Virus record (IMG/VR): IMGVR_UViG_2778261450_000004
DNA: 40,477 nucleotides
Strand: one strand, 5' to 3'
Source: a virus
Lineage: Duplodnaviria; Heunggongvirae; Uroviricota; Caudoviricetes
Shown here in pieces: positions 31,377 through 34,091 of the stretch (position 1 is its first letter; the number at the start of each line of letters is the position of its first letter). The notes under the pieces were generated by a model. It was not told the origin of the DNA, made no database searches, and was given only the letters and a program-made list of their open reading frames with translations. The translations under genes were made by a program, and so were the position numbers.

Positions 31377-31799
31377 TCAATGCACTACGACAGAATCGCC
31401 GGATGATCCGCCGCGGCTGAAATGCGCTTTCCGGTAAACGGCCTGGACTGCATCATCATGCGCATCAATTGCCGTATTCAGCGCTTCCTGAGCCGCCAGT
31501 AATGCGCGACGTTCCAGGGTGTCAAAAACGCTGAGGCGGTGTCGCAGTTCGCGCGGAAGAATTGCCAGGATTGCAGGAATCAGCTTCTGGATTTTTTCCC
31601 TTTGCGCCTCTGTTTCACCTTTTAACCAGCGGTGATAGATGTTTTGCTGATTGTTCCAGTCCTTGCCTGGCGCCAGGGCTAATTCACTCTCCCCCTGGCG
31701 CAAATATTCTTCAGTAATTGCGTTGGCAACCCACGCCTGACCTTTTTCGGCAGCCAGAGCTAACAACACTGATTCAATGTGCTCATGCCTGATTTTCAT
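31377..31799 (-). CDS. ydaT: YdaT-like protein
   Basis: 140 aa from MKIRHEHIESVLLALAAEKGQAW...; position after the Cro-like gene matches Rac ydaS-ydaT. Confidence 0.6.
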   Translation of the reverse strand: MKIRHEHIESVLLALAAEKGQAWVANAITEEYLRQGESELALAPGKDWNNQQNIYHRWLKGETEAQREKIQKLIPAILAILPRELRHRLSVFDTLERRALLAAQEALNTAIDAHDDAVQAVYRKAHFSRGGSSGDSVVVH

Positions 31800-32010
31800 G
31801 AATACCCTTACCCGCCCGCTTTGCCTTACGATATTTGTCATAGATATTTGAGTCGTACTGAAGCTCCCCGCCAGATGCCTCTTGCAGACGCATCGCGCGG
31901 CCTTCAGGAACCAGTTCCCCCCATTGAGAAACAGCAGATGGATCAACGCCAGCAGCTTTCGCCACTTTGGCTTTCGTGCCGTAATAATTAATTACGTCTG
32001 ATTTAAACAT
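31783..32010 (-). CDS. Cro/YdaS-like small HTH protein
   Basis: MFKSDVINYYGTKAKVAKAAGVDPSAVSQWG... is HTH-like; ATG at 32010 with a GGAGGTG SD; divergent from the repressor gene. The track start at 32037 is a TTG. Confidence 0.55.
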   Translation of the reverse strand: MFKSDVINYYGTKAKVAKAAGVDPSAVSQWGELVPEGRAMRLQEASGGELQYDSNIYDKYRKAKRAGKGIHENQA

Positions 32011-32020
32011 TGCACCTCCA

Positions 32021-32037
32021 ATATTGAGTTTTCTCAA
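32021..32037. promoter_or_regulatory. Operator: 16-mer ATATTGAGTTTTCTCA containing palindrome TTGAG-TTTT-CTCAA
   Basis: Exact 16-mer repeated at 32557-32572; lies between the divergent Cro-like and repressor genes; further CTCAA half-sites at 32047 and 32057. Confidence 0.55.
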
Positions 32038-32066
32038 TGTTAATCACTCAAGGAATCTCAAGTCAA
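32037..32066 (-). promoter_or_regulatory. Putative promoter for the Cro-like gene
   Basis: On the - strand: TTGACT (32061-32066), 18-bp spacer, TAACAT (32037-32042); the operator overlaps the -10/+1 region. Confidence 0.3.
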
Positions 32067-32087
32067 GGGTTATTAAGATATCTAAAT

Positions 32088-32495
32088 ATGAACGAGAAAA
32101 CTTTAGGTCAACGAATTAGAGAAAGACGCAAGCAGGTAGGCTTAAGTCAAAGTGGTTTAAGCAAAGCTGCTGGCGTTTCTGGCTCATCAATTTCATTATG
32201 GGAAAGTGACCATACAGCCCCGCGCGGGCAAAATTTGCATAGACTCGCCGAGGTATTACAATGCTCACCGACCTGGATACTGTTCGGTGATGAGGATAAA
32301 ACTCCGGATGCCCCAGTTTCACTCAATAGCACCTTAGACTTATCGGAAGATGAACTGGAGATGTTGCGACTGTATCGCGCACTTCCAAAATCCGAACAAC
32401 AAGCACAAATCAGTGAACTCAGCGCTCGAGTTGAGAATTTTAATCGCCTATTTACTGAGCTATTAGAAGCTCGCAAGCGTAACAAACATCAATAA
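32088..32495 (+). CDS. XRE-family HTH repressor (CI / RacR-like)
   Basis: MNEKTLGQRIRERRKQVGLSQSGLSKAAGVSGSSISLWESDHTAPRGQNLHRLAEVLQCSPTWILFGDED is a classic XRE HTH. No SD, so possibly leaderless; an alternative upstream ATG is at 32037. Confidence 0.7.
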   Translation: MNEKTLGQRIRERRKQVGLSQSGLSKAAGVSGSSISLWESDHTAPRGQNLHRLAEVLQCSPTWILFGDEDKTPDAPVSLNSTLDLSEDELEMLRLYRALPKSEQQAQISELSARVENFNRLFTELLEARKRNKHQ

Positions 32496-32556: not shown

Positions 32557-32606
32557 ATATTGAGTTTTCTCATCAAAAACACTTGACCAAAAACAATGAG
32601 AAAACT
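32557..32606. promoter_or_regulatory. Second operator cluster: 16-mer ATATTGAGTTTTCTCA (32557-32572) plus inverted copy TGAGAAAACT (32597-32606)
   Basis: Exact repeat of the 32021-32036 16-mer; located downstream of the repressor gene and upstream of the rightward early operon. Confidence 0.5.
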
Positions 32607-32682
32607 AAATTACATCCCATCAAAACACCGCACGGTGTTCTCAGCAAACAGTTCCGCCACCCGGCGTTAAGGGGATACGAAG

Positions 32683-32961
32683 ATGATCGCAGATGAAAAG
32701 CAGGGACTGGTGTTAAAAATAGATACCAGCCCCCTGAGACATCAGATTGAGAAGTTATACAAACTACTTGTTCCTGCGGTTTTTAACTGTCCGGATGATT
32801 TTATTGATTGTTTTATTAAAGTGTTCACTGAAATCAGAATCTTTGATTTCCGCAAAACAATCACCGCAGATAAAACGATCATTGTCAGAGCCAGAGTGCT
32901 CATCGATCTCAATGTAGCGAGATCGGCAATGAGGACAGCGAAATTTAATATCCATAATTAA
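32683..32961 (+). CDS. Hypothetical ORF at the ydaG position (uncertain; overlaps an antisense zinc-ribbon ORF)
   Basis: 92-aa ORF with an AAGGGG SD about 8 nt upstream; on the same strand as the rightward early operon. Confidence 0.3.
   Translation: MIADEKQGLVLKIDTSPLRHQIEKLYKLLVPAVFNCPDDFIDCFIKVFTEIRIFDFRKTITADKTIIVRARVLIDLNVARSAMRTAKFNIHN
32764..32955 (-). CDS. Putative zinc-ribbon protein (CPHC-x17-CGDC)
   Basis: MDIKFRCPHCRSRYIEIDEHSGSDNDRFICGDCFAEIKD...; TAAGGA SD 8-9 nt upstream of the ATG. Confidence 0.4.
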   Translation of the reverse strand: MDIKFRCPHCRSRYIEIDEHSGSDNDRFICGDCFAEIKDSDFSEHFNKTINKIIRTVKNRRNK

Positions 32962-32995
32962 TATCCTTACAGCAAATTACCATTTGTAAGGATAT
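32961..32995. repeat. 11-bp perfect inverted repeat ATATCCTTACA / TGTAAGGATAT with 13-nt loop
   Basis: Read directly; overlaps the SD of the - strand zinc-ribbon ORF and abuts the stop of the + ORF. Confidence 0.75.
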
Positions 32996-33050
32996 CACCT
33001 CACCTGATGTGGTTAAAAGCAGGTCGTAGGCTCCACGATACGGAGCAACT

Positions 33051-33248
33051 ATGAAGCCAATTCCCCCAGCGTTAAGGGAAAATGAGGTCAACATGGATAC
33101 TATCGATCTTAGCAACAACGAATCCCTGGTGTGTGGCGTGTTCCCCAACCAGGATGGAACGTTCACCGCCATGACGTATACCAAAAGCAAAACGTTTAAA
33201 ACCGAAGTTGGCGCGCGTCGCTGGTTGGAGAAGTACACAGTAAGCTAA
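33051..33248 (+). CDS. ydaF: YdaF-like small protein
   Basis: ATG at 33051 with a GGAG SD (alternative ATG at 33093); protein-like sequence at the Rac ydaF position. Confidence 0.45.
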   Translation: MKPIPPALRENEVNMDTIDLSNNESLVCGVFPNQDGTFTAMTYTKSKTFKTEVGARRWLEKYTVS

Positions 33249-33700
33249 CGATTAAAACGTCTGCTCCTACTGTTCCAGAATAACTTCATAAAGTGGGAGT
33301 ATTTTTCGGTGACGAGATAATAAGAACAGTTTGCGCCATCACTCTGATGTTGAATGATGCCCTTCCGTTCTAATTTTTTCATAACCGGGTTACGGCAAGG
33401 AGAAGTGATAATAAGATTTCCTGTTTTAAGGAAATCTTTAAATACAGCGATTTCTTTCTCAGATAAACGAAGCAATACTCGTTGCTCTGGTAGCAATGAA
33501 TAATGTTTTTGAATATGTGCTCGCAATCTTGAGAAGGAAATGGCAACCACGAAAGAAAAGGCAAAAACTATAATCTGAAAGAGCCAGGTTATTTCAGTAT
33601 AAGCATTAAATACGACAGCAAACTCTTTCGGTATCAGCCAGAGAGTGAGGCCAAAAATGATAATCGTGTACATAAGTCTTTCGATGTGGCTCTTTAGCAA
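33245..33700 (-). CDS. sieB: Superinfection exclusion protein B-like membrane protein
   Basis: Two N-terminal hydrophobic helices (IIIFGLTLWLIP..., WLFQIIVFAFSFVVAISF); opposite strand to kilR, as sieB is in Rac. Confidence 0.5.
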   Translation of the reverse strand: MLKSHIERLMYTIIIFGLTLWLIPKEFAVVFNAYTEITWLFQIIVFAFSFVVAISFSRLRAHIQKHYSLLPEQRVLLRLSEKEIAVFKDFLKTGNLIITSPCRNPVMKKLERKGIIQHQSDGANCSYYLVTEKYSHFMKLFWNSRSRRFNR

Positions 33701-34091
33701 AAAGTTTCAACAATGGAGTAAATACATCCAACATTTCAATAACTCTCGACTGTAAGGGTATTGAAATGTTAACACAAGCTCTCGCTGTAGGGGTATAGCC
33801 GAGACCACCGAAGCCCGGAGGTGGTGAAATAAAACCGGGCACAACACGAAGGCGCATTTCCGATATCCATAAAGAGTCGGTCTTGTCTGTTAAATATAAA
33901 TGGTGGGAGTGCGCCTCCGGTTGTGAATAACGACATTGCTGTGTGTAGTCTTTGGCGGCATCGGTTTTTTCTTGAAGTTCGGCTGATGTCCGCCCTTTTT
34001 AAAGTGAATTTTGTGATGCGGTGAATGCGGCTAAGCGCACGCGGAACAGTTAAAAAACTCTATATTAGTTTGGGTGGTATTTGTATCCGGT

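Follow-up and report, generated by a model that had tools for sequence, protein, structure and literature searches.

Can one stretch of prophage DNA carry genes on both of its strands, and if a single strand is read, which one? The question is raised by a 40,477-nt stretch of Caudoviricetes DNA (IMG/VR record IMGVR_UViG_2778261450_000004; "the window" below means this whole stretch), in which an initial annotation, made from the letters alone, noticed at 32683-32995 a fully overlapping pair of open reading frames (ORFs) on opposite strands, each with its own Shine-Dalgarno sequence (SD), next to an 11-bp inverted repeat. Both ORFs and both SDs were found where that annotation had placed them. 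We refer to the plus-strand ORF as AS and to the minus-strand ORF, which encodes a zinc-ribbon protein, as ZnR; the pair lies in the immunity region of a Rac-like lambdoid E. coli prophage, where AS is the first ORF past the early-left promoter. ZnR is very likely a real gene, missed by RefSeq in this cassette variant. Comparison with relatives suggests that AS, too, is probably translated and under selection, and we lean slightly towards a small gene unit lying antisense in the early-left operon, with both strands read. The pair consists of:

32683..32961, + strand: AS ORF, 92 aa, ATG start
32669-32674, + strand: SD of the AS ORF, AAGGGG, 8 nt 5' of its ATG, within the conserved block CCCGGCGTTAAGGGGA
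32683..32763, + strand: AS-only segment, 27 codons outside the ZnR gene
32764..32955, - strand: ZnR ORF, 63 aa, ATG start
32969-32964, - strand: SD of ZnR, TAAGGA, 8 nt 5' of its ATG, within the inverted repeat, in what is the 3' arm on the - strand

One codon register is common to both ORFs, with positions 1, 2 and 3 of the AS codons opposite positions 3, 2 and 1 of the ZnR codons. Since the AS-only segment lies outside ZnR, it is the sole place for a test of AS coding that ZnR constraint does not confound.

A zinc-ribbon gene of the ECs_2282 family

The ZnR protein has the two CxxC knuckles described in the initial annotation (cysteines C7, C10, C30 and C33), spaced as CPHC-x19-CGDC and not by the 17 residues reported there. 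The accompanying argument, that so clean a motif is unlikely to arise by accident on an antisense strand, was borne out by the membership of ZnR in a curated protein family, NF047912 of NCBIfam (the ECs_2282 family of putative zinc-binding proteins, with its namesake in prophage Sp12 of E. coli O157:H7 Sakai). ZnR matches this model with an E value of 1.3e-7 over profile positions 1-58 of 60, scoring 31.4 bits, which is below the curated cutoff of 37 bits. Among its sister proteins, which are 43-54% identical to it and were obtained as the minus frames of diverged cassettes reached through a search with the + ORF, two exceed that cutoff (38.3 and 47.1 bits). Three subfamilies were compared, namely window-type, ECs-type and L157-type, the last found through the promoter-like block described below; the L157 type scores 81.7 bits and the namesake type 57.8 bits. 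HHalign joined the window-type and ECs-type ZnR profiles with 93% probability (E = 3e-7, 55 columns), and in BLASTP the minus frames of the two types align (E = 2e-4), whereas the plus frame of the O157 ECs-type copy gives no BLASTP alignment with that of the window-type. Judged from these comparisons, ZnR belongs to the ECs_2282 family as a divergent member, placed there through transitive homology and not on its score.

The genomic setting agrees with this assignment. ZnR is found in the early region of a lambdoid prophage, antisense, by the repressor gene and behind a shared promoter-like block, and in Sp12 the annotated ECs_2282 itself runs opposite to the CI gene and the early genes, on the ZnR strand. 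ZnR also shares with the family a size class of 61-75 aa, the pattern M-x-(I/V/L)-(K/R)-F-x-CPxC ... CxxC, aligned over the full profile, and the slot, with the cI-like repressor gene on one side, the early-left genes on the other and an antisense orientation, behind the same promoter-like block. Unlike the ECs-type and L157-type members, to which it is only 17-25% identical (depending on the alignment), the window ZnR has a knuckle spacer of 19 residues instead of 21, and its C-terminal tail is basic (KNRRNK) where that of the ECs-type is acidic. PGAP annotates the ZnR strand wherever the protein exceeds the NF047912 cutoff.

The pattern of substitutions points the same way. The four cysteines are invariant in 16 diverse ZnR sequences, and their codons alternate between TGT and TGC, flipping Thr and Ala in the AS frame. 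Across 39 unique ECs-type sequences from prophages of E. coli, Citrobacter, Klebsiella and Enterobacter, the 65 codons of overlap have accumulated 93, 24 and 57 parsimony changes at plus-strand phases 1, 2 and 3, which places the main wobble at position 3 of the ZnR codons; the dN/dS of ZnR is mostly 0.17-0.30. ZnR is intact across its relatives except in an O157/EHEC-type allele (locus L009, strain E2865; 2688-2888, - strand), in which the ECs_2282-type gene carries an in-frame TAA at codon 14 (CPECGG*). The antisense frame stays open there, and PGAP annotates it as a hypothetical protein. For 521 E. coli genome records, identity to this sequence is 99% or more along all or some of the query, and the full-length 100% matches that were sampled belonged to the enterohaemorrhagic serogroups O157, O145 and O111.

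Relatives of ZnR match phrog_4852 in PHROGs. We rejected the Lar family (PF14354, TIGR03655; 19.6 bits, E = 0.0011, under a gathering cutoff of 28.6), a Rac restriction-alleviation protein that is likewise a small prophage zinc-ribbon protein; many unrelated zinc-ribbon models match ZnR as well as the Lar model does, and the likeness is one of a common fold, not of membership. In Foldseek, the top matches of the ZnR model were zinc ribbons (TFIIB N-terminus, Brf1, Rpb9 and Elf1), none significant (E at least 0.39). A tblastn search against GenBank phages returned nothing, a scan of genome contigs only two unrelated zinc ribbons, from Rhizobium and Bacteroidota, and a metagenome scan only three identical copies, so that the window-type clade stays small. 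PADLOC gave no match of meaning, and neither protein of the pair had a defence-system, Pfam or structural match beyond "zinc ribbon". Rfam held nothing for the locus (a snoRNA match at E = 0.83 only). Literature searches yielded no papers on ECs2282 and nothing specific on sieB, moron and hotspot.

Probable selection on the antisense frame

In RefSeq, AS is annotated as the hypothetical protein WP_001406915.1 and is the only ORF of the pair annotated. The window protein has no Pfam, NCBIfam or PHROG match; its ECs-type counterpart is held in PHROGs as phrog_21318, and relatives of AS exist at 38-50% identity. The initial annotation had placed AS at the ydaG position of the operon, which applies to the slot, in that K-12 ydaG follows the same SD block GTTCCGCCACCCGGCGTTAAGGGGA, and not to the sequence: AS as a YdaG homologue was rejected, the K-12 protein (44 aa, MVHYEVVQYL...), read directly, being unrelated.

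No stop interrupts the AS frame in any of 57 unique ECs-type cassettes, in any window-type copy or in the L157 type. With each ZnR protein and the codon usage of the window taken as given, an antisense frame would be open with a probability of 0.05-0.35 per lineage. In the window alone an open frame is unsurprising (about 0.35), because its ZnR contains no Leu and only 5 Ser. The case for AS beyond chance, as read from sequence comparison, comes from the relatives and not from the window itself. None of the 11 Leu and 24 Ser codon states of ZnR in the ECs-type overlap is TTA, CTA or TCA, and as a control, other cargo genes behind the same promoter-like block mostly have 1-11 stops in the same-register antisense frame. 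An SD and an ATG or GTG start are present at the conserved boundary in all inspected cassette types but one, the Enterobacter type, where the AS frame continues from an upstream ORF. Diverged relatives thus keep both ORFs intact at a frequency above that predicted from codon usage, and the antisense arrangement is kept across at least three subfamilies whose ZnRs are only ~17-25% identical to that of the window.

Openness is accompanied by signs of coding. In the ECs-type AS-only part (24 aligned codons, 39 sequences), where AS is the only frame open in 39/39 sequences, parsimony changes fell 26/19/52 by phase (chi-square, P about 1e-4), and dN/dS was mostly 0.1-0.5. The AS wobble rate drops from 2.17 changes per site in this part to 0.88 inside the overlap, and ZnR wobble sites, at 1.43 changes per site, are also slower than the AS-only wobble sites; both drops match what two-way constraint predicts. 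Within the ECs-type overlap the dN/dS of AS is mostly 0.4-0.8. Across subfamilies, AS-only peptides are alike in the AS frame alone (mean z 1.48, versus 0.36 and -0.03), for example window versus L231 (z 4.8) and L234 versus L157 (z 5.5). In the wider window-type clade, differences in the overlap are symmetric, at ~28/12/26 per pair. The comparative analysis of synonymous sites that the initial annotation had proposed therefore speaks for constraint on both frames in the ECs-type, the counts in the window's own close clade being too few to decide, and its suggestion that both ORFs might be expressed is favoured by the comparative data of the relatives. As far as such data reach, AS does not look like a chance shadow.

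The cassette itself is rare: it was found in 29/5,426 complete E. coli genomes, in nearly identical copies, and a blastn search in distant mode found no diverged DNA relatives among E. coli genomes. The first 36-39 bases of the query (32640-32675/8), which hold the AS SD block, were matched in ~590 further E. coli genomes, and this block also stands 5' of ydaG in K-12 Rac and of the AS ORF in other prophages. In the window, the SD block, CC(C/A)GCGTTAAGGG(G/A)A, is repeated before the successive plus-strand genes AS and ydaF (32660-32675 and 33030-33080), and a hairpin-containing junction, GGCTCCACGATACGGAGCAAC, found 5' of ydaF in the window, occurs on both cassette flanks in Salmonella loci; the SD block and the hairpin junction look like recombination joints for module exchange. 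In two further loci (L011 and L012) the cassette lies on the far side of the immunity region, with AS following cro in the rightward early operon and ZnR convergent, so the pair moves as a unit in which AS is always co-directional with an early operon.

Two observations on the AS sequence stand apart. In Citrobacter-type prophage loci (L013-L015) the AS ORF (2495-3019, - strand) is extended to 174 aa, and the added N-terminal part has a second LLVSIDTSKAV-like motif resembling the AS N-terminus; the extension may be a tandem duplication of the AS N-terminal segment, with no zinc-ribbon gene opposite. Within the ORF pair of the window, TGATTGTTTT(AT) (32805-32816) is complementary to two downstream copies of (AT)AAAAC(A/G)ATCA, 10-12 nt long, at 32854-32863 and 32870-32881.

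Promoter-like block, inverted repeat and neighbourhood

The initial annotation overlooked three things: a promoter-like block upstream of ZnR, a terminator-like hairpin downstream of it, and the annotation of the + ORF alone in RefSeq. The minus-strand gene is flanked by the following elements:

32989-33023, - strand: conserved promoter-like block CCTGCTTTTAACCACATCAGGTGAGGTGATATCCT, upstream of ZnR
32695-32736, - strand: terminator-like hairpin 28 nt past the ZnR stop, with a 10-bp G+C-rich stem and a 13-nt loop, then CUUUUC
33024-33038, - strand: terminator-like stem, then CCTGCTTTTA, directly 5' of the promoter-like block
32961-32971 and 32985-32995, both strands: arms of the perfect 11-bp inverted repeat ATATCCTTACA / TGTAAGGATAT, with a 13-nt spacer

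The block consists of a -35-like TTAACC (33016-33011), a 16-nt spacer and TGa + TATCCT (32994-32989). Its motif was found once in the window, and more than 120 IMG/VR loci (L108-L227) carry the block, with the consensus CCTGyyTTTmACCACrTCAGGykmGGTGrTATyyT, that is, TT(A/C)ACC, a 16-nt spacer, and TGn + TATCCT/TATCTT. It always stands in one orientation, 42-73 nt (mostly 49-59) 5' of the ATG of a small gene. The cargo genes behind it are mutually unrelated, encoding among others several zinc ribbons, ~105-aa membrane proteins and proteins 37-150 aa long; one of them lies in mEp460, a lambdoid phage, with dicB on one side and the repressor gene on the other. From its consensus and context we infer that the block is a shared promoter, sigma-70-like with an extended -10. 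The promoter scan did not list it because its hexamers match the consensus at 8/12 positions (plus TGn), under the scan's threshold of 9. Readings of the block as a LexA box or a cI-type operator were rejected, by eye only. The exact block is absent from the window's sieB gene and from the K-12 Rac region, and it looks like the mark of a variable cargo (moron) slot of Rac/Qin-like prophages, apparently at one position. In some of the loci (L198 and related ones) the cargo is a predicted membrane protein of 106 aa (MSQPPINPLKNMKIDYWYK...), whose same-register antisense frame is stop-free in most copies; this may be a second antisense pair, or chance.

The hairpin past the ZnR stop (-22.1 kcal/mol for an 86-nt segment, z -2.5) was missing from the terminator scan because its loop is too long for the scan's rule. 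An equivalent hairpin of different sequence, ATGGCGCT-N13-AGCGCCAT followed by a U-rich run, is found 3' of the ECs-type gene. The stem at 33024-33038 could stop minus-strand transcripts coming from sieB. A boxA-like reading of TGCTTTTAACC on the minus strand was dropped, since that strand has no operon needing antitermination.

The inverted repeat was described correctly in the initial annotation, including that it covers the ZnR SD; of the two roles offered there, terminator or translational occluder, the first does not hold. The stem is A+T-rich (3 G-C pairs in 11), is followed by CACCTCACC on the plus strand and TAATTATGG on the minus strand, with no T-run on either, and is unlisted by the terminator scan. 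The second role fits better. The repeat folds better than shuffled sequences on either strand (z -3.7 and -5.9; 0/200 as good), and read on the minus strand, it has a 5' arm overlapping the -10-like hexamer and a 3' arm that contains the ZnR SD. We folded 36 distinct promoter-to-ATG segments standing before different cargo genes, and in most of them a TC(C/T)T begun in the -10-like hexamer pairs with an SD-adjacent A(A/G)GA, so that this -10-to-SD stem recurs with compensatory changes (TCCTTAAAA/TTTTAAGGA, TCTTGG/CCAAGA, TCCTTGC/GCAAGGA and TCCTCT/AGAGGA). Such covariation indicates a nucleic-acid stem and not a protein-binding site. The same arms precede window-type and L157-type genes, travelling with the promoter module and not with the cargo. 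A transcript started ~7 nt past TATCCT would lack the 5' arm, and its leader, predicted to be unstructured (-1.5 kcal/mol), would leave native ZnR mRNA translatable; one entering from upstream of the ZnR promoter (predicted fold -14.1 kcal/mol) would fold and hide the ZnR SD. We therefore favour a model of insulation, in which the stem would occlude the SD on read-through transcripts.

A rather unlikely alternative is that the repeat acts elsewhere, either on the early-left (plus-strand) transcript, as a processing or stabilising stem after the AS stop, or in the DNA, as a protein-binding palindrome. The operon strand gives the more stable stem in 26/36 variants and on average over the variants (by 1.2 kcal/mol), which weighs slightly against the occluder model, each strand having 16 G-U pairs in the stems, and in the window the first base of the repeat is the final one of the AS stop codon. 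However, in most variants the arms are built on the cargo gene's -10-like TCCT and SD AGGA, the plus strand has no T-run after the stem, and arms that go with the promoter module and not with the cargo argue against a cargo-specific operator.

Around the pair, the immunity region comprises:

31783-32037, - strand: P22-Cro/YdaS-like gene
32037-32495, + strand: cI/RacR-like helix-turn-helix repressor gene
32559-32611 region, + strand: inverted operator-like pair of 15 nt, ATTGAGTTTTCTCAT / ATGAGAAAACTAAAT, bracketing the pL-like promoter
32583-32611, + strand: early-left (pL-like) promoter TTGACC-17-TAAATT, between the cI-like repressor gene and AS
End at 33248, + strand: ydaF (DUF1391), downstream of the ORF pair
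33245-33700, - strand: sieB

The inverted pair probably represents the left operators of the cI-like repressor. The plus strand is that of the early-left operon, since kilR, ydaE, racC and recE come next on it in 99.9% identical RefSeq copies. The leader of the early-left transcript holds a small hairpin, AACACC-GCAC-GGTGTT (32624-32639, + strand), also found in the O157-type locus L009 and in the L157-type locus; at the position of lambda's nutL, it may be a boxB-like element. For ydaF, the program-made ORF runs from 33051 to 33248 (+ strand, 65 aa), and RefSeq and the DUF1391 match place the start at M15, position 33093 (MDTIDL, 51 aa). The sieB frame has 151 aa from a TTG start (33245-33735, - strand), the gene is annotated as frameshifted in a 99.9% identical RefSeq copy, and K-12 sieB is 489 bp long; the window's sieB looks damaged.

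One gene or two in the early-left operon

The reading towards which we lean, a small antisense gene unit with both strands read, would work as follows. ZnR would be transcribed independently, with its own promoter, SD and terminator-like hairpin, and would be expressed in the lysogen, as sieB is. The early-left promoter would give rise to the plus transcript, whose first ORF, AS, would read through the whole unit on reversed codons. AS would most likely be translated in lytic growth, given that its frame is kept open and that its non-overlapping N-terminus shows coding-type evolution. Expression of ZnR in lysogeny and of AS after induction would be mutually exclusive, because their transcription is convergent. 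A stronger form of this proposal, in which a conserved two-way unit of ~64 codons specifies a zinc-ribbon protein in the lysogen and an early lytic protein after induction, each excluding the other by convergent transcription, is possible, and we put it forward tentatively.

Several observations weigh against reading both strands. In the window's close clade (~5 distinct sequences) the changes in the overlap, 4/5/10, are not significant and those in the AS-only part, 3/6/6 with a pN/pS of ~1.1, are too few; the clade leans opposite to the ECs-type, with a pN/pS of 0.34 for AS versus 0.87 for ZnR. HHalign between AS subfamilies joined 14 N-terminal columns only (P = 0.034), from which AS in the overlap may be largely a passenger of ZnR. 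The ZnR hairpin sits inside AS codons 7-18 and also constrains the DNA of the AS N-terminus. Because six loci (L231-L236) were reached by searching with the AS protein, their open AS frames carry an ascertainment bias. The AlphaFold2 models of both proteins are of low confidence (pLDDT 62 for ZnR, with strands at 15-18 and 27-30, and 48 for AS), and the match of the ZnR promoter hexamers, given above, is an imperfect one.

Some of these observations would be expected if ZnR alone were functional and the + ORF were what the strong SD of the early operon happens to read into; it may be translated, and the ribosomes travelling along the early transcript would then limit Rho-dependent polarity across the antisense insert, its amino-acid sequence having no function of its own. 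We regard this as unlikely, yet as the more serious of the single-gene alternatives. It would account for the conservation between subfamilies of the ZnR frame against a 14-column match in AS, for the failure of the plus frames of the window-type and O157 ECs-type copies to align, for the higher dN/dS of AS than of ZnR in the ECs-type overlap, for the low-confidence AS model, and for an open antisense frame that is not improbable opposite the window's ZnR. What it leaves unexplained is that the AS-only part shows phase periodicity, low dN/dS and frame-specific peptide similarity, which point to selection on residues and not on openness alone, and that ZnR wobble sites change less than AS-only wobble sites. 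The converse, that the + ORF is the only gene, as in RefSeq, and the zinc-ribbon frame its shadow, is highly improbable. The PGAP call of the + ORF, the close clade, with 10 substitutions at plus codon position 3 versus 4 at position 1, and the L009 allele, with its minus frame interrupted by TAA and its plus frame open, would fit such a view. But the 10-versus-4 count is not significant, the four cysteines are invariant in 16 diverged sequences while the plus frame flips between Thr and Ala, the curated-family and profile-profile matches support ZnR, the ECs-type wobble falls at ZnR position 3, and the minus-strand gene has a promoter-like block, an SD and a terminator-like hairpin of its own.

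With both frames retained, the unit can be compared with known systems. A phage moron is a promoter-gene-terminator unit inserted between phage genes. The minus-strand gene, with its own promoter-like block, SD and terminator-like hairpin, looks like a moron lying antisense in the early operon: it is similarly compact, and different cargo stands behind the same block in different prophages. Unlike a moron, it is antisense to the host operon, whose first ORF reads through it. The stem recalls the fold-back inhibition of IS10 transposase, in which the ribosome-binding site is paired with sequence upstream of the element's own start site; by analogy, transcripts coming in from outside would be the only ones to fold and be silenced. 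It differs from IS10 in that the start site in the window is taken from a consensus match and the stem may act on either strand.

Whether bacteria and phages have long antisense overlapping genes is contested, most of the proposed cases being young and resting on expression data alone. Antisense overlapping pairs are reported in E. coli O157:H7 (ano/ECs2385, asa and the three genes of PMC9927249), and antisense overlapping genes of Pseudomonas aeruginosa are described as evolutionarily novel (PMC8850804). As in the pairs so described, the window pair has a second ORF opposite an annotated gene, and annotation pipelines keep just one of the two; unlike those pairs, which are reported to rest on RNA-seq and Ribo-seq, it is known from sequence comparison. 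It is conserved across prophages of Escherichia, Salmonella, Citrobacter, Klebsiella and Enterobacter, and judged by these relatives the pair is old and widespread. Here the pipeline retains the longer ORF and drops the better-conserved one. The + ORF annotation was seen in the two RefSeq copies of the cassette that were inspected, and also in the nonsense-allele copy; RefSeq thus names the less conserved strand, because ZnR falls 5.6 bits under the family cutoff and AS is longer.

The pair is a good system for asking whether both products matter: the second frame can be examined without interference in the segment that does not overlap, and either frame can be given stop codons that leave the other protein unchanged. 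In Rac/Qin-like prophages, the promoter block common to the cargo genes, together with the covarying stem between -10 and SD, appears to mark a variable slot for cargo, which is a likely place for superinfection-exclusion or defence genes. If the two-way unit is true, one stretch of DNA would provide a different protein in each state of the prophage life cycle.

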